Below are positions 3,572 through 10,376 of a DNA stretch of 64,000 nucleotides, in pieces. The notes below the pieces were generated by a model. The model was not told the DNA's origin, searched no databases, and was given only the letters and a program-made list of their open reading frames with translations. A program made the position numbers and the translations under genes. This DNA comes from Escherichia coli (GTDB lineage Bacteria; Pseudomonadota; Gammaproteobacteria; Enterobacterales; Enterobacteriaceae), in NCBI RefSeq assembly GCF_003334785.1, contig NZ_QOWV01000003.1; one strand, given 5' to 3'. Every line of letters begins with the position of its first letter. Position 1 is the stretch's first letter.

Positions 3572-3628
3572 TCAATACCCTCTTTAAAAGAAGAGGGTTA
3601 GATTGCTGACAAAATGCGCTTTGTTCAT

Positions 3629-3726
3629 GCCGGATGCGGCGTGAACGCCTTATCCGGCCTACATAATCACGCAAATTCAATATATTGCAGAGATCATGTA
3701 GGCCGGATAAACGTAGTGCATCAGGC
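3629..3726. repeat. REP/BIME-type palindromic repeats (GCCGGATGCGGCG...CTTATCCGGCCTAC and inverted copy)
   Basis: Characteristic REP consensus strings seen in rnr-rlmB intergenic region. Confidence 0.75.
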
Positions 3727-3750: not shown

Positions 3751-4482
3751 ATGAGCGAAATGATTTACGGCATCCACGCAGTGCAGGCCCTGCTGGAGCG
3801 CGCCCCTGAACGTTTTCAGGAAGTCTTTATTTTAAAAGGCCGTGAAGATAAACGTCTGTTACCGCTGATTCACGCCCTTGAGTCTCAGGGCGTGGTTATC
3901 CAGTTGGCAAACCGCCAATATCTCGACGAGAAAAGCGACGGTGCCGTGCATCAGGGCATTATCGCCCGCGTGAAGCCAGGACGTCAGTATCAGGAAAACG
4001 ATCTGCCGGATCTGATCGCTTCGCTCGATCAACCGTTCCTGCTGATCCTCGACGGCGTAACCGATCCGCACAACCTCGGCGCGTGCCTGCGTAGTGCGGA
4101 CGCCGCAGGCGTTCATGCGGTGATTGTGCCGAAAGATCGCTCCGCACAGCTCAACGCTACGGCGAAAAAAGTAGCCTGCGGCGCGGCAGAAAGCGTTCCG
4201 CTGATTCGGGTGACTAACCTTGCGCGCACCATGCGTATGTTGCAGGAAGAGAATATCTGGATCGTCGGTACGGCAGGCGAGGCGGATCATACACTCTATC
4301 AGAGCAAAATGACCGGACGCCTGGCGCTGGTGATGGGTGCGGAAGGTGAAGGTATGCGTCGCCTGACTCGTGAACATTGCGATGAGTTGATCAGCATCCC
4401 GATGGCTGGAAGCGTTTCTTCCCTGAACGTTTCGGTTGCGACCGGAATTTGCTTATTTGAAGCGGTGCGCCAGCGCAGCTAA
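3751..4482 (+). CDS. rlmB: 23S rRNA (guanosine2251-2'-O)-methyltransferase
   Basis: 243-aa ORF recognised as RlmB (SpoU family); gene order after rnr. Confidence 0.92.
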
Positions 4483-4502
4483 TTTCTCAGAATTATGAAA
4501 AG

Positions 4503-4529
4503 CCATCCAGATTTGGATGGTTTTTTTTT
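4503..4529 (+). terminator. rho-independent terminator after rlmB
   Basis: Stem CCATCCA/TGGATGG followed by T9 run. Confidence 0.75.
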
Positions 4530-4608
4530 GTCTATAGCTGGTAAGATAATTACGTATTGCAAATATTCATTTTATTAATATTTAAACTTAATCTATATGG
4601 AATAATAT

Positions 4609-5010
4609 ATGACATGGAATCCGTTGGCGCTAGCGACGGCGCTGCAAACTGTACCTGAACAAAATATTGATGTAACAAATAGCGAGAACGCATTAATTAT
4701 TAAAATGAATGATTATGGCGATTTGCAAATCAATATTCTTTTTACTTCCCGCCAAATGATTATCGAAACCTTTATTTGTCCGGTGAGTAGTATCAGCAAT
4801 CCAGATGAATTTAATACCTTCTTATTAAGAAATCAGAAGATGATGCCGTTGTCATCGGTAGGGATCTCCAGCGTACAACAGGAAGAGTATTACATTGTTT
4901 TCGGGGCGTTATCGCTTAAATCTTCTCTTGAAGATATCCTGCTTGAGATAACCTCGCTGGTAGATAACGCATTGGATCTGGCTGAAATTACAGAAGAATA
5001 TTCACACTAA
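4609..5010 (+). CDS. yjfI: DUF2170-family protein YjfI
   Basis: 133-aa ORF recognised as YjfI; first gene of yjfIJKLMC cluster. Confidence 0.85.
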   Translation: MTWNPLALATALQTVPEQNIDVTNSENALIIKMNDYGDLQINILFTSRQMIIETFICPVSSISNPDEFNTFLLRNQKMMPLSSVGISSVQQEEYYIVFGALSLKSSLEDILLEITSLVDNALDLAEITEEYSH

Positions 5011-5028
5011 TTACAAGGACGGGTATTT

Positions 5029-5727
5029 ATGGGAATTTTAAAAAGTTTATTTACGCTGGGGAAATCGTTTATCTCCCAGGCGGAAGAATCCATTGAAGAA
5101 ACCCAGGGCGTGCGCATGCTGGAACAGCATATTCGTGACGCTAAAGCTGAACTCGATAAAGCCGGAAAATCTCGCGTTGATCTGCTGGCGCGGGTGAAAT
5201 TAAGTCACGATAAGCTGAAAGATTTACGTGAGCGCAAAGCCAGTCTGGAAGCCCGTGCGCTGGAAGCGTTAAGCAAGAACGTTAATCCGTCGTTGATTAA
5301 CGAAGTTGCTGAAGAAATCGCGCGCCTTGAGAATCTCATTACCGCTGAAGAGCAAGTGTTGTCGAATCTGGAAGTCTCCCGTGATGGCGTGGAAAAAGCA
5401 GTTACAGCGACAGCGCAGCGTATCGCTCAGTTTGAGCAGCAAATGGAAGTCGTTAAAGCCACTGAAGCCATGCAGCGTGCACAACAGGCTGTAACAACCT
5501 CTACCGTTGGCGCATCTTCCAGCGTTTCGACAGCGGCAGAATCCTTAAAACGCCTGCAAACGCGTCAGGCCGAACGTCAGGCTCGCCTGGATGCTGCCGC
5601 ACAGTTGGAGAAAGTCGCAGACGGTCGCGACCTTGACGAAAAGCTGGCGGAAGCCGGAATTGGCGGTAGCAATAAAAGTAGCGCCCAGGATGTATTAGCA
5701 AGACTGCAACGCCAACAGGGCGAGTAA
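5029..5727 (+). CDS. yjfJ: PspA/IM30-family protein YjfJ
   Basis: 232-aa coiled-coil-rich ORF recognised as YjfJ (PspA paralog). Confidence 0.88.
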   Translation: MGILKSLFTLGKSFISQAEESIEETQGVRMLEQHIRDAKAELDKAGKSRVDLLARVKLSHDKLKDLRERKASLEARALEALSKNVNPSLINEVAEEIARLENLITAEEQVLSNLEVSRDGVEKAVTATAQRIAQFEQQMEVVKATEAMQRAQQAVTTSTVGASSSVSTAAESLKRLQTRQAERQARLDAAAQLEKVADGRDLDEKLAEAGIGGSNKSSAQDVLARLQRQQGE

Positions 5728-5777
5728 TTTTTTTGCCAGCCTCGCTAAAAGGCTGGCAACTATTTTAAGGATAAAAT

Positions 5778-6437
5778 ATGTCTGGTTTTTTCCAGCGTCT
5801 GTTTGGCAAGGATAATAAGCCAGCTATCGCTCGTGGTCCGCTGGGACTTCATCTCAATAGTGGCTTTACGCTCGACACGTTAGCGTTTCGTTTGCTGGAA
5901 GATGAATTGCTGATTGCGCTGCCGGGTGAGGAATTTACGGTAGCCGCCGTCAGCCACATCGATCTGGGCGGCGGTAGTCAGATTTTCCGCTACTACACTT
6001 CAGGCGATGAGTTTCTGCAAATCAATACCACCGGCGGCGAAGATATTGATGACATTGATGATATCAAGCTCTTTGTCTATGAAGAGAGCTACGGTATCAG
6101 TAAAGAGAGTCACTGGCGCGAGGCGATCAACGCCAAAGCGATGGGAGCAATGACCTTAAACTGGCAGGAAAAACGCTGGCAGCGATTTTTTAACAGCGAA
6201 GAACCGGGAAATATCGAACCCGTCTACATGCTGGAAAAAGTAGAAAATCAAAACCATGCCAAATGGGAGGTCCATAATTTTACCATGGGCTACCAACGGC
6301 AAGTAACCGAAGATACTTACGAATATTTGCTGCTAAATGGTGAGGAATCTTTTAACGATCTCGGCGAGCCAGAGTGGTTATTTTCGCGCGCGTTGGGTGT
6401 CGATATCCCGCTGACATCACTTCATATTATTGGTTAA
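5778..6437 (+). CDS. yjfK: DUF2491-family protein YjfK
   Basis: 219-aa ORF recognised as YjfK. Confidence 0.85.
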   Translation: MSGFFQRLFGKDNKPAIARGPLGLHLNSGFTLDTLAFRLLEDELLIALPGEEFTVAAVSHIDLGGGSQIFRYYTSGDEFLQINTTGGEDIDDIDDIKLFVYEESYGISKESHWREAINAKAMGAMTLNWQEKRWQRFFNSEEPGNIEPVYMLEKVENQNHAKWEVHNFTMGYQRQVTEDTYEYLLLNGEESFNDLGEPEWLFSRALGVDIPLTSLHIIG

Positions 6438-6454
6438 TTACAAGGACGTTTACA

Positions 6455-6853
6455 ATGCATATACTGGATTCACTTCTTGCCTTTAGCGCCTATTTTTTTA
6501 TTGGCGTGGCTATGGTGATTATTTTTCTGTTTATCTATTCTAAAATTACACCGCACAACGAATGGCAGTTAATCAAAAACAATAATACCGCGGCGTCACT
6601 GGCGTTCAGCGGTACATTGTTGGGTTACGTTATCCCCTTATCCAGTGCGGCAATCAATGCGGTGAGTATTCCAGACTATTTCGCCTGGGGCGGGATTGCA
6701 CTGGTGATTCAGTTACTCGTTTTTGCTGGTGTCAGACTTTATATGCCCGCATTAAGCGAAAAAATTATTAATCACAATACCGCAGCAGGAATGTTTATGG
6801 GAACCGCCGCGCTGGCTGGCGGTATTTTTAACGCAGCTTGTATGACATGGTAA
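6455..6853 (+). CDS. yjfL: DUF350-family inner membrane protein YjfL
   Basis: Hydrophobic ~132-aa product from ATG at 6455 with AGGA RBS; ORF-track start at 6374 is an upstream extension. Confidence 0.82.
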   Translation: MHILDSLLAFSAYFFIGVAMVIIFLFIYSKITPHNEWQLIKNNNTAASLAFSGTLLGYVIPLSSAAINAVSIPDYFAWGGIALVIQLLVFAGVRLYMPALSEKIINHNTAAGMFMGTAALAGGIFNAACMTW

Positions 6854-6862
6854 TGGACGATC

Positions 6863-7501
6863 ATGGCCAGAAAACGCAAATCAAGAAATAACAGTAAAAT
6901 TGGTCACGGAGCGATTAGTCGCATTGGTAGACCGAATAATCCTTTTGAACCGCGTCGCAATCGCTACGCACAAAAATACTTAACGTTGGCGCTAATGGGC
7001 GGTGCCGCTTTTTTCGTATTGAAAGGTTGTAGCGATAGTAGCGATGTCGATAACGACGGCGACGGAACGTTTTACGCGACAGTGCAGGATTGTATTGATG
7101 ACGGTAATAATGCCGACATTTGCGCGCGTGGCTGGAACAACGCCAAAACGGCATTTTATGCCGATGTTCCGAAGAATATGACTCAGCAGAACTGTCAGTC
7201 TAAGTACGAAAATTGCTACTACGACAATGTTGAACAGAGTTGGATCCCGGTCGTTTCTGGATTTTTGTTAAGCCGGGTTATTCGTAAAGATCGCGATGAG
7301 CCGTTTGTTTATAACAGCGGCGGTTCCTCTTTTGCTTCGCGCCCAGTCTGGCGCAGCACTTCTGGTGATTACTCTTGGCGCTCCGGTTCTGGCAAAAAAG
7401 AGTCTTACTCTTCGGGCGGCTTTACCACCAAAAAAGCGTCTACCGTTTCTCGCGGCGGCTATGGTCGTTCTTCCAGCGCCCGTGGGCATTGGGGAGGCTA
7501 A
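6863..7501 (+). CDS. yjfM: DUF1190-family protein YjfM
   Basis: 212-aa ORF recognised as YjfM; Ser/Gly-rich C-terminus. Confidence 0.82.
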   Translation: MARKRKSRNNSKIGHGAISRIGRPNNPFEPRRNRYAQKYLTLALMGGAAFFVLKGCSDSSDVDNDGDGTFYATVQDCIDDGNNADICARGWNNAKTAFYADVPKNMTQQNCQSKYENCYYDNVEQSWIPVVSGFLLSRVIRKDRDEPFVYNSGGSSFASRPVWRSTSGDYSWRSGSGKKESYSSGGFTTKKASTVSRGGYGRSSSARGHWGG

Positions 7502-7503
7502 TC

Positions 7504-8667
7504 ATGCTGAGACACAACGTTCCTGTGCGACGGGATCTGGACCAGATCGCCGCTGACAACGGTTTCGACTTTCATATCATCGACAATGAAATCTATTGGG
7601 ATGAGAGTCGGGCTTACCGTTTTACTCTGCGCCAGATTGAAGAGCAGATCGAAAAACCGACTGCGGAACTGCATCAGATGTGCCTTGAGGTGGTGGATCG
7701 CGCGGTAAAAGATGAAGAGATCCTGACGCAACTGGCGATCCCGCCGTTGTACTGGGATGTGATCGCTGAAAGCTGGCGCGCCCGCGATCCTTCGCTGTAT
7801 GGACGGATGGATTTTGCCTGGTGTGGCAATGCGCCGGTGAAGCTGCTGGAGTACAACGCCGATACGCCAACTTCATTGTACGAGTCGGCTTATTTCCAGT
7901 GGCTGTGGCTGGAGGATGCCCGGCGCAGCGGCATTATTCCGCGTGATGCCGATCAGTACAATGCTATTCAGGAACGCCTGATTTCACGCTTTAGCGAGCT
8001 TTACAGTCGGGAACCGTTTTATTTTTGCTGCTGTCAGGACACCGATGAAGACAGGAGTACCGTGCTGTACTTGCAGGACTGCGCCCAGCAGGCAGGGCAG
8101 GAGTCGCGGTTTATCTACATTGAAGATCTCGGTTTGGGCGTCGGCGGCGTACTGACCGATCTTGATGATAATGTCATCCAGCGTGCATTTAAGCTGTATC
8201 CGCTGGAGTGGATGATGCGTGACGATAACGGTCCGCTGCTGCGCAAGCGTCGCGAGCAATGGGTGGAGCCGTTATGGAAAAGTATCTTGAGTAATAAAGG
8301 GCTAATGCCGCTGCTTTGGCGCTTCTTCCCTGGTCATCCTAACCTTCTTGCATCCTGGTTTGAGGGTGAAAAATCGCAGATTGCCGCTGGCGAAAGCTAT
8401 GTGCGTAAACCGCTCTACTCGCGCGAAGGCGGAAATGTCACCATTTTCGACGGCCAGAATAACGTCGTTGACCACGCTGATGGTGATTACGCCGATGAAC
8501 CGATGATCTACCAGGCGTTTCAACCTCTGCCGCGGTTTGGCGATAGCTACACACTCATCGGTAGCTGGATTGTCGATGATGAAGCGTGCGGAATGGGGAT
8601 CCGTGAAGATAACACACTGATCACCAAAGACACCTCACGTTTCGTTCCGCATTACATTGCTGGATAA
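7504..8667 (+). CDS. yjfC: glutathionylspermidine-synthase-like ATP-grasp protein YjfC
   Basis: 387-aa product from ATG at 7504 (GGAGG RBS, 2 nt after yjfM stop); ORF-track start at 7375 is an extension overlapping yjfM. Confidence 0.85.
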   Translation: MLRHNVPVRRDLDQIAADNGFDFHIIDNEIYWDESRAYRFTLRQIEEQIEKPTAELHQMCLEVVDRAVKDEEILTQLAIPPLYWDVIAESWRARDPSLYGRMDFAWCGNAPVKLLEYNADTPTSLYESAYFQWLWLEDARRSGIIPRDADQYNAIQERLISRFSELYSREPFYFCCCQDTDEDRSTVLYLQDCAQQAGQESRFIYIEDLGLGVGGVLTDLDDNVIQRAFKLYPLEWMMRDDNGPLLRKRREQWVEPLWKSILSNKGLMPLLWRFFPGHPNLLASWFEGEKSQIAAGESYVRKPLYSREGGNVTIFDGQNNVVDHADGDYADEPMIYQAFQPLPRFGDSYTLIGSWIVDDEACGMGIREDNTLITKDTSRFVPHYIAG

Positions 8668-8750
8668 GAATGTTTTAGCAATCTCTTTCTGTCATGAATC
8701 CATGGCAGTGACCATACTAATGGTGACTGCCATTGATGGAGGGAGACACA

Positions 8751-10376
8751 GTGCACTGGCAAACTCACACCGTTTTTAATCAACCTATACCATTAAATAA
8801 CAGCAACTTATACCTGTCTGATGGCGCGCTCTGCGAAGCGGTAACGCGTGAAGGTGCTGGCTGGGATAGCGATTTTCTAGCCAGTATTGGTCAGCAGTTA
8901 GGAACGGCTGAATCCCTTGAACTGGGGCGGCTGGCGAATGTGAATCCGCCTGAATTATTGCGCTACGATGCGCAAGGACGCCGTCTGGACGATGTGCGTT
9001 TTCACCCCGCCTGGCACCTGCTGATGCAGGCGCTATGTACCAATCGGGTGCACAATCTTGCCTGGGAAGAAGACGCTCGCTCCGGCGCATTTGTGGCGCG
9101 CGCGGCGCGTTTTATGTTACATGCGCAGGTTGAGGCAGGGTCGTTATGTCCGATAACCATGACCTTTGCCGCCACGCCATTGTTGTTACAGATGTTACCC
9201 GCGCCGTTTCAGGACTGGACCACGCCGCTATTGAGCGATCGCTACGATTCTCACTTATTGCCAGGTGGGCAAAAACGCGGTTTGTTGATTGGCATGGGAA
9301 TGACGGAAAAGCAGGGCGGTTCCGATGTTATGAGCAACACCACCCGTGCAGAGCGTCTGGAAGATGGCTCTTATCGGCTGGTGGGGCATAAATGGTTTTT
9401 CTCGGTTCCGCAAAGCGATGCGCATCTGGTGCTGGCGCAGACCGCGGGTGGTCTGTCCTGCTTTTTTGTGCCGCGCTTTTTGCCTGACGGGCAACGCAAC
9501 GCGATTCGCCTCGAGCGGCTGAAAGATAAGCTGGGTAATCGCTCTAACGCCAGTTGCGAAGTGGAGTTTCAGGATGCCATTGGTTGGTTGTTGGGGCAGG
9601 AAGGGGAAGGAATTCGTCTGATCCTGAAAATGGGTGGGATGACGCGTTTTGATTGCGCCCTGGGTAGCCATGCCATGATGCGCCGTGCATTTTCGCTGGC
9701 GATTTATCATGCACATCAACGCCATGTTTTTGGTAATCCATTGATCCAACAGCCCCTTATGCGTCATGTCTTAAGTCGCATGGCACTTCAGCTTGAAGGG
9801 CAAACGGCGTTGCTGTTTCGTCTTGCGCGAGCGTGGGACCGGCGTGCCGATGCCAAAGAAGCCCTGTGGGCGCGTTTATTTACGCCTGCGGCAAAATTTG
9901 TGATCTGCAAAAGAGGTATGCCGTTTGTGGCCGAAGCGATGGAGGTGCTGGGCGGCATTGGTTATTGCGAGGAGAGCGAGCTGCCGCGGCTTTACCGGGA
10001 GATGCCGGTAAACAGTATTTGGGAAGGTTCCGGCAATATTATGTGCCTGGATGTGTTGCGCGTTCTCAATAAGCAAGCGGGCGTATACGACTTATTGTCG
10101 GAAGCATTTGTGGAAGTGAAAGGGCAGGATCGCTATTTTGATCGCGCGGTTCGTCGTTTACAGCAGCAGCTGCGTAAGCCAGCTGAAGAACTGGGGCGAG
10201 AGATTACTCATCAGCTATTCCTGCTGGGCTGCGGTGCGCAAATGTTGAAATATGCTTCTCCGCCAATGGCGCAGGCGTGGTGTCAGGTGATGTTAGATAC
10301 GCGCGGCGGCGTACGGTTGTCAGAGCAGATCCAGAATGATTTATTGCTGCGGGCGACGGGGGGAGTGTGTGTGTAA
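8751..10376 (+). CDS. aidB: adaptive-response protein AidB (acyl-CoA dehydrogenase family)
   Basis: 541-aa product from GTG at 8751 preceded by GGAGGG; sequence recognised as AidB. Confidence 0.9.
   Translation: MHWQTHTVFNQPIPLNNSNLYLSDGALCEAVTREGAGWDSDFLASIGQQLGTAESLELGRLANVNPPELLRYDAQGRRLDDVRFHPAWHLLMQALCTNRVHNLAWEEDARSGAFVARAARFMLHAQVEAGSLCPITMTFAATPLLLQMLPAPFQDWTTPLLSDRYDSHLLPGGQKRGLLIGMGMTEKQGGSDVMSNTTRAERLEDGSYRLVGHKWFFSVPQSDAHLVLAQTAGGLSCFFVPRFLPDGQRNAIRLERLKDKLGNRSNASCEVEFQDAIGWLLGQEGEGIRLILKMGGMTRFDCALGSHAMMRRAFSLAIYHAHQRHVFGNPLIQQPLMRHVLSRMALQLEGQTALLFRLARAWDRRADAKEALWARLFTPAAKFVICKRGMPFVAEAMEVLGGIGYCEESELPRLYREMPVNSIWEGSGNIMCLDVLRVLNKQAGVYDLLSEAFVEVKGQDRYFDRAVRRLQQQLRKPAEELGREITHQLFLLGCGAQMLKYASPPMAQAWCQVMLDTRGGVRLSEQIQNDLLLRATGGVCV

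Follow-up and report, generated by a model that had tools for sequence, protein, structure and literature searches.

Why does one gene cluster of the Escherichia coli chromosome place a protein of the PspA family, which protects membranes, beside a ligase related to glutathionylspermidine synthetase? We addressed this question for yjfIJKLMC, which occupies positions 4609-8667 of a 64,000-nucleotide (nt) stretch of E. coli DNA (contig NZ_QOWV01000003.1 of assembly GCF_003334785.1; hereafter, the window). The window is chromosomal, and its region 4400-8800 was matched in 5426 of 5426 complete E. coli genomes. The cluster is already known and annotated, and its operon class has been published. 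The two questions on which our analysis bears are the physiological substrate of YjfC and the related YgiC, and the role of the enterobacterial YjfJ. We read the cluster as two evolutionary modules in one co-oriented array, which probably serve an envelope response that couples PspA-type protection to polyamine conjugation. The six genes, whose names in RefSeq agree with those given in a preliminary description of this DNA, are the following (aa, amino acids; T3SS, type III secretion system):

yjfI, 4609-5010, + strand: 133 aa; DUF2170 (PF09938), with a CesT-like (T3SS-chaperone-like) fold
yjfJ, 5029-5727, + strand: 232 aa; PspA/IM30 (bacterial ESCRT-III) family, PF04012
yjfK, 5778-6437, + strand: 219 aa; DUF2491 (Pfam E 3.6e-71), all-beta
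yjfL, 6455-6853, + strand: 132 aa; DUF350 (PF03994); the longest reading frame starts at GTG 6374
yjfM, 6863-7501, + strand: 212 aa; DUF1190 (PF06693, E 4.2e-17), predicted lipoprotein
yjfC, 7504-8667, + strand: 387 aa; GSP_synth (PF03738, E 3.8e-149); the longest reading frame starts at TTG 7375

All six genes are intact and lie on the + strand, and their open reading frames (ORFs) have the same lengths as those called in public E. coli records. From yjfI to yjfC, the intergenic gaps measure 18, 50, 17, 9 and 2 nt, an arrangement far beyond chance. The last gap agrees exactly with the preliminary description: the TAA of yjfM occupies 7499-7501 and the ATG of yjfC begins at 7504. Moreover, the Shine-Dalgarno sequence of yjfC (GGGGAGG) sits within the 3' end of yjfM; the two genes are tightly coupled. 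The preliminary description counted three DUF proteins; Pfam gives four (DUF2170, DUF2491, DUF350 and DUF1190). One of them, YjfL, is indeed a small membrane protein.

To place the cluster in a wider context, we scanned for YjfC with a profile, took one genome per species, and obtained 80 loci, to which three E. coli loci were added (83 in total). The ORFs of these loci were searched with iterated profiles of the six Yjf proteins. The architecture proved to be nested: 34 loci carry the yjfM- and yjfC-type genes alone (MC), 16 carry LMC, and about 27 carry the full IJKLMC array. The MC class includes tolC-ygiB-ygiC of E. coli itself (locus L070). A DUF1190 gene lies directly 5' of the ligase gene in 79 of the 83 loci, with a spacing of -1 to +12 nt in 62/78, and a yjfL homologue precedes this pair directly in 44/80. 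Three further loci appear as LC; here a short divergent protein with the same C-terminal tail takes the DUF1190 position. DUF1190 genes that were sampled independently, with a profile run against 1.84 billion representatives, likewise adjoin GSP_synth genes. The full I-J-K-L-M-C order was found in Enterobacteriaceae, Vibrionaceae, Alteromonadales and Oceanospirillales, as well as in one Dyella and one Desulfurivibrionaceae genome. Since the flanking genes differ between these lineages, the gene order is held by selection and not by shared synteny. The claim that the cluster is conserved thus holds both within E. coli and across genera. From the distribution of the genes, the array is read as a polyamine-ligase core, L-M-C, onto which the PspA dyad I-J and the DUF2491 gene (K) were added.

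The comparison also revealed a gene that the window no longer has. In ten full-length loci, a K+ channel gene (340-356 aa, Pfam Ion_trans_2, with a TVGYGD- or GFGD-type filter) stands between yjfJ and yjfK. This position is taken by a channel gene of 356 aa in L004 (3070-4140) and L084 (3238-4308), and by a channel gene in L005 as well. In six loci without the I-J dyad, it precedes yjfL or yjfK. Salmonella enterica keeps the gene in the same rnr-rlmB...aidB context, and so do Citrobacter youngae and 19 of the 5426 complete E. coli genomes. The class with 90-95% identity over the cluster region also comprises 19 genomes, which are probably the same ones. The ancestral array carried the channel gene between yjfJ and yjfK, and typical E. 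coli lost it. In the window, as in typical E. coli, positions 5728-5777 form a 50-nt gap with a hairpin in its place. Klebsiella lacks the gene as well, and its gap is not homologous to that of E. coli, which suggests that the two losses were independent. The hairpin is:

5733-5759, + strand: terminator-like hairpin in the yjfJ-yjfK gap; 10-bp stem, weak U-tail CTATTTTAAG

This structure (dG -17.1 kcal/mol, z = -3.3) is unique in the window. Transcription could be attenuated at this hairpin, and a report of yjfIJ as an operon would agree with that. Any termination here would be partial, because in evolved strains the expression of yjfK and yjfL increases along with that of yjfI and yjfJ.

The first module consists of yjfI and yjfJ. 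YjfJ matched the PspA/IM30 family over its whole length (PF04012, E 5.9e-58, residues 2-232 against positions 1-220 of the 220-position model). The single sequence gave no match among solved structures; a profile of 21 YjfJ homologues matched the Vipp1/PspA chains 8QBR, 8QBW and 6ZVR (E 3.6e-11 to 6.5e-11, residues 1-227). The Pfam and profile matches bear out the earlier assignment of YjfJ to the PspA/IM30 family. YjfI belongs to DUF2170 and matched the solved structure of the DUF2170 protein BacA (8Q8O; phmmer E 1.1e-16, residues 3-128); against the NCBIfam BacA model it reached E 1e-26, a score under the model cutoff. The BacA structure has the fold of T3SS chaperones such as CesT (PMC10948618). 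No T3SS genes were found among the neighbours in the window, and the conserved partner of YjfI is a PspA homologue. YjfI is a fold relative of T3SS chaperones, not itself a T3SS chaperone, and is likely a partner or regulator of YjfJ.

Neither YjfI nor YjfK shows a signal peptide when the sequences are read directly; YjfK is therefore presumably cytoplasmic. YjfL has four hydrophobic segments, as read from its sequence, and is an inner-membrane protein.

YjfM, the DUF1190 member, has a putative lipobox LKGC (7019-7030; L53-K54-G55-C56) after a hydrophobic stretch. The corresponding column holds Cys in 97% of 74 DUF1190 homologues. The N-terminal region of E. coli YjfM is unusually long (38 residues) and basic. 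In one Escherichia genome (L004, 5222-5860), the lipobox Cys is replaced by Trp (VVKGW instead of VLKGC), so that this YjfM could not be lipidated. DUF1190 proteins further share four invariant Cys and a Met/Gly-rich hydrophobic segment. We considered this segment as a second transmembrane helix that would leave the tail in the cytoplasm, and rejected it: it spans only about 12-15 residues, with an invariant Pro and Gly and often an Arg.

The C-terminus of the family has a characteristic build, namely an invariant R-G-G-(F/Y)-G, a median of 16 residues rich in Ser, Ala, Arg and Lys, an aromatic residue or Met, and a terminal Gly-Gly. In YjfM, RGGYG is encoded at 7451-7465 and the terminal HWGG at 7487-7498; an alignment of 24 sequences shows no variation at R197, G198, G199, G201, G211 and G212. 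A terminal GG was seen in 73 of the 79 loci proteins and in 120 of the 150 family representatives, and the residue before it is usually W, F or M; the other termini are mostly GS or SS, and AT was also seen. Loci of the Bradyrhizobium type encode, between DUF350 and the ligase, a short membrane-anchored protein that has lost the four-Cys domain and kept ...SRGGFG...GG-COOH. Since the tail persists here without that domain, it is the most conserved part of DUF1190.

YjfC, the cytoplasmic enzyme of the second module, is filled by a single domain: GSP_synth spans residues 14-385 of 387, and no second Pfam domain was found. It aligns to the bifunctional glutathionylspermidine synthetase/amidase (GspSA) over residues 253-619 of the latter only, and it scored 162.5 bits with the NCBIfam GspSA equivalog, for which the cutoff is 882. 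The preliminary description called YjfC a GspS-like amidase/ligase; the ligase domain (PF03738) is there, whereas the amidase domain is absent. Its structures are deposited as "Putative acid--amine ligase YjfC" (PDB 7UK6 and 7UK7). According to its title, Pederick 2023 reports a peptide-spermidine ligase activity of YgiC and YjfC, and papers that cite a study of both proteins (Sui 2012) state that YgiC has no glutathionylspermidine synthetase activity. A 2025 paper states that the physiological substrate of YjfC and YgiC is unknown. The yjfC frame is open for 129 nt 5' of its ATG, through the yjfM tail (7375-7503). Where yjfM carries a frameshift, as in some strains of E. coli, DUF1190 and GSP_synth appear fused (P0006, with 601 aa and 130 member sequences; also P0001-P0004). 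We rejected the fusions P0001-P0006 as Rosetta-stone evidence, because they are frameshifted yjfM reading into the open frame 5' of yjfC.

Published expression data and phenotypes connect part of the cluster to heat. The genes yjfIJKL form a co-expression module, the "YjfJ iModulon", which is strongly induced in heat-evolved strains (PMC12492005); in the same work, yjfK and yjfL rise with yjfI and yjfJ when a mutation upstream of the cluster, considered below, is present. Induction of yjfIJKL from a plasmid raised the growth rate 1.21-fold at 42 °C (PMC11472167). For the other part, loss of YgiBC and YjfMC is reported to alter the growth defect of a tolC mutant in minimal glucose medium. The preliminary description had called the cluster functionally poorly defined. 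This holds only in part, given the data on heat tolerance, tolC, structures and operon class.

How might the two modules work together? YjfI and YjfJ would attach to the inner membrane on its cytoplasmic side and stabilise it during stress. YjfI would serve YjfJ as a chaperone or restrain it as a negative regulator, a role that the bacA mutant suggests for the Pseudomonas homologue. The second module comprises YjfL, a DUF350 protein with four transmembrane (TM) segments, the putative lipoprotein YjfM and the ATP-grasp enzyme YjfC, which, according to published biochemistry, ligates spermidine to a peptide carboxylate and makes no glutathionylspermidine. The presumably cytoplasmic, all-beta YjfK travels with either module. 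In this way, PspA-type membrane protection would be linked with the conjugation of polyamines on or close to the membrane.

Several observations weigh against this picture. The PspA link is facultative, as MC and LMC occur widely without I-J. The published co-expression module consists of yjfIJKL only, without yjfM or yjfC, and in a large expression compendium the cluster stays silent in every other sample (PMC12492005). One paper treats yjfIJ as an operon of its own, and the hairpin at 5733-5759 separates yjfJ from yjfK. YjfJ reportedly does not form the large oligomers typical of PspA (review, PMC5333519). Finally, insertion sequences or frameshifts interrupt the cluster in some E. coli strains, so that it is dispensable in the laboratory.

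If the coupling of PspA-type protection to polyamine conjugation is accepted, the question arises what YjfC conjugates. One possibility, which we regard as doubtful, is a soluble substrate: YjfC would join spermidine with a small metabolite, either a peptide or a carboxylate, in order to buffer polyamines or to detoxify a compound exported by TolC. By the same tentative account, YjfL and YjfM would transport or sense the conjugate, and the YjfM tail would have another role. The reported in vitro activity on peptides and the effect of YgiBC and YjfMC loss on the tolC growth defect are consistent with this idea, and other operon classes likewise bring DUF350 together with polyamine enzymes (PMC11237479). 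In addition, docking lent no support to the YjfM tail as substrate. For this purpose, a single chain of YjfC, a 25-residue linker and the 20 C-terminal residues of YjfM was modelled with AlphaFold2 from a 27-row paired alignment, without ATP or Mg. The enzyme was predicted with a pLDDT of about 90 and the tail with 27-39, and no confident docking was seen. Against a soluble substrate stand three points: no candidate metabolite is known, neither YjfL nor YjfM contains a transporter-type domain according to Pfam and NCBIfam, and the conservation of the extreme C-terminus of DUF1190, including its retention after loss of the domain, is left unexplained.

This conservation would be accounted for if the tail itself were the substrate. 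YjfC would then form a spermidine amide on the terminal Gly of the YjfM tail (RGGYG...HWGG-COOH), an idea that we consider unlikely, though specific. In its general form, which we also consider unlikely, the idea is that ATP-grasp ligases naturally act on the DUF1190 lipoproteins (YjfM, YgiB) encoded next to them. Such a reaction would resemble that of RimK with ribosomal protein S6, of LysX with LysW, or of tubulin tyrosine ligase. The parent family ligates spermidine to the C-terminal Gly carboxylate of glutathione, and YjfC reportedly accepts peptides; because of these two facts, the YjfM tail is an obvious candidate. The constant position of the DUF1190 gene directly 5' of the ligase gene (79/83 loci) and the close spacing (62/78) argue in the same direction, as do the six invariant Arg and Gly residues, the prevalence of GG termini (73/79 and 120/150), the tail kept by the Bradyrhizobium-type replacement protein, and the statement that the substrate was still unknown in 2025.

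The location of the two proteins poses a difficulty for this idea. The putative lipoprotein signal, with Cys in 97%, and the four invariant Cys point to the periplasm, whereas the ligase is cytoplasmic. Modification would therefore have to precede export; it would take place in the cytoplasm, ahead of Sec export or while it is under way, and give rise to a lipoprotein with a polycationic tail, a sequence of events that we judge equally unlikely. Moreover, about 20% of the family end in GS, SS or AT and yet adjoin a ligase gene. We asked whether DUF1190 proteins without terminal GG lack a ligase neighbour; the ligase is present beside them, and this comparison did not discriminate. The AlphaFold2 result counts as weak negative evidence only, because the model held no ATP or Mg. 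If true, polyamination of the tail would be a previously undescribed bacterial post-translational modification, the yjf version of which would be coupled to a PspA-type membrane-repair pair. The DUF1190 tail is thus the one new lead of this analysis; the rest restates an annotated cluster of a published class.

Two unusual loci bear on the arrangement of this pair. In a metagenomic locus (L087, 991-4251), a DUF1190 gene lies between two GSP_synth genes, and in L088 (705-2922) the order is DUF1190-GSP_synth-DUF350. The DUF1190 proteins of these loci end in -SS or -AT, not in -GG.

A simpler explanation for the whole cluster would be that the six genes are mere neighbours, divided among two or three operons (yjfIJ; yjfKL; yjfMC) that are unrelated and have no function in common. 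This would fit the hairpin inside the cluster (5733-5759), the end of the co-expression module at yjfL, the description of yjfIJ as an operon and the many genomes in which MC or LMC stand alone. Nevertheless, we consider it improbable, as I-J-(channel)-K-L-M-C recurs across lineages in different chromosomal surroundings, the gaps of 2-18 nt are too small for promoters at four of the five junctions, and yjfK and yjfL rise with yjfI and yjfJ under the upstream mutation. A hairpin at the 3' end of yjfL (6803-6823) was considered as the cause of the module boundary at yjfL and rejected, since it folds no better than shuffled sequence (z = -0.66). Very improbable is the proposal of Rychel et al. 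2025, drawn from structure predictions (PMC12492005) and in keeping with the growth benefit of overexpression at 42-45 °C, that the envelope gains pore-like structures from YjfJ, YjfK and YjfL, with YjfK as a primitive outer-membrane beta-barrel porin and YjfI as a periplasmic lipoprotein-like sheet, and confer heat tolerance through membrane crowding or efflux of misfolded proteins, because YjfK and YjfI have no signal peptide and YjfI is homologous to BacA, a solved cytoplasmic protein with a chaperone fold.

We then considered how the two-module array is expressed. The gene upstream, rlmB, ends at 4482, and the region between it and yjfI contains two features:

4497-4529, + strand: intrinsic terminator of rlmB, with a hairpin at 4497-4526 and a T9 tract at 4521-4529
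4539-4547, + strand: candidate extended -10 element TGGTAAGAT (consensus TGnTAAnAT), inferred, 62 nt 5' of the yjfI ATG

The rlmB terminator is as strong as the preliminary description had it: its dG is -18.1 kcal/mol (z = -4.3), none of 200 shuffles folded as well, and hairpin and T-run are conserved across five genera. A promoter of the cluster's own, which had been postulated from this terminator, is plausible. The motif at 4539-4547, which begins ten nt 3' of the T9 tract, plausibly resembles an extended -10 promoter element, to judge from its letters. Escherichia, Salmonella (TGGTAATAT) and Klebsiella (TGCTAAAAT) retain it, and Citrobacter (GGTATTAT), where the TG is missing, retains it in part. 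A promoter scan made no call at 4539-4547, because a -35 element is absent. When the + strand of 4483-4608 was searched for a sigma-54 site (TGGCAC-N5-TTGCW, up to two mismatches), no match was found.

The supplement of Rychel et al. 2025 lists the activating mutation as (T)9->8, intergenic +47/-80, rlmB/yjfI (PMC12492005). In the window it falls at position 4529, within the T9 tract (4521-4529) that forms the U-tract of the rlmB terminator. For this reason, transcription reading through from rnr-rlmB may explain the effect instead of an activated promoter. The mutation may act through such read-through or through an altered promoter context. Together with the invariant DUF1190 tail beside the ligase and the lost K+ channel gene, this position in the terminator T-tract points to cheap experiments.

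Further observations concern the surroundings of the cluster. Between rnr and rlmB (3623-3705), we found sub-threshold Rfam matches to RNA families derived from repetitive extragenic palindromic (REP) elements, namely naRNA4 (38 bits, threshold 59.5) and ES036 (31 bits, threshold 37.6); within the cluster, Rfam gave zero RNA families. No terminator-like site was found 3' of yjfC when we looked for one. The yjfC-aidB intergenic region contains an 18-nt inverted repeat (8698-8737; 89% complementary, 4-nt spacer). PADLOC returned only weak coiled-coil matches of YjfJ in the window, and a defence system is therefore unsupported. Insertion sequences IS1 or IS5 lie inside the cluster region of several E. 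coli genomes, and in one locus (L003, 3499-4934) yjfK is split by IS1; such insertions suggest that some lineages can do without the cluster. A gene for a rhomboid-like membrane protein (about 186 aa, GASG...H motifs) flanks the cluster in about ten loci of marine gammaproteobacteria (L012, L013, L023, L028, L038, L050, L052, L057 and L063; for example L050, 5977-6883). This gene lies divergently 5' of yjfI or 3' of yjfC, often with one for a 92-aa protein resembling helix-turn-helix (HTH) regulators.

Finally, we compared the cluster with known systems. A check of literature and databases, which the preliminary description had called for, turned up a published operon class, structures and phenotypes; the cluster is less obscure than had been claimed. 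YjfC shares the ATP-grasp ligase fold family (PF03738) with GspSA and trypanothione synthetase. Unlike GspSA, it has no N-terminal amidase domain, and glutathionylspermidine synthesis is reported absent for YgiC in the study of both homologues (Sui 2012).

Within E. coli, tolC-ygiB-ygiC contains a DUF1190 and ATP-grasp pair like that of yjfMC, with identical order and equally tight spacing. YgiC structures are available (7UK8 and 7UKA), and YgiC and YjfC are both reported to be peptide-spermidine ligases. In contrast to the yjf cluster, ygiBC follows tolC and is not accompanied by DUF350, DUF2491, PspA or DUF2170 genes, and the YgiB tail ends in RSMGG whereas YjfM ends in HWGG. In Citrobacter rodentium, ygiB is Cpx-regulated.

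YjfJ and PspA of the E. coli pspABCDE/PspF system are both members of the PspA/IM30 family, and a link to heat stress has been reported for yjf. The yjf cluster differs in that it has no homologues of PspB, PspC or PspF and no sigma-54 promoter. The partner of YjfJ is a CesT-like protein instead of PspBC, and YjfJ is reported without large rings (PMC5333519).

The bacABCDEF operon of Pseudomonas aeruginosa starts with a DUF2170 gene (BacA, 8Q8O) followed by that of the PspA-family protein BacB, just like yjfI-yjfJ. The six genes of this "biofilm-associated cluster" are co-transcribed, and its phenotypes concern biofilm and rhamnolipid. In the bacA mutant, the other Bac proteins are increased 7- to 13-fold (PMC10948618). 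A sigma-54 promoter has been proposed for bac, whereas none was found upstream of yjfI. A YjfK profile search aimed at the Pseudomonas bac operon returned marine homologues only.

The closest relative is class 3 of the PSP operons described by Ravi et al. 2024, which comprises a CesT/Tir-PspA dyad, a glutathionylspermidine-synthetase-like ATP-grasp protein, DUF350, a DUF1190 lipoprotein, DUF2491 and a K+ channel (PMC11237479). The channel of that class, which has an intracellular ligand-sensing domain, is absent from the window, where the 50-nt gap with the hairpin stands instead. All other protein families and the gene order are shared, and the window is a member of this class.

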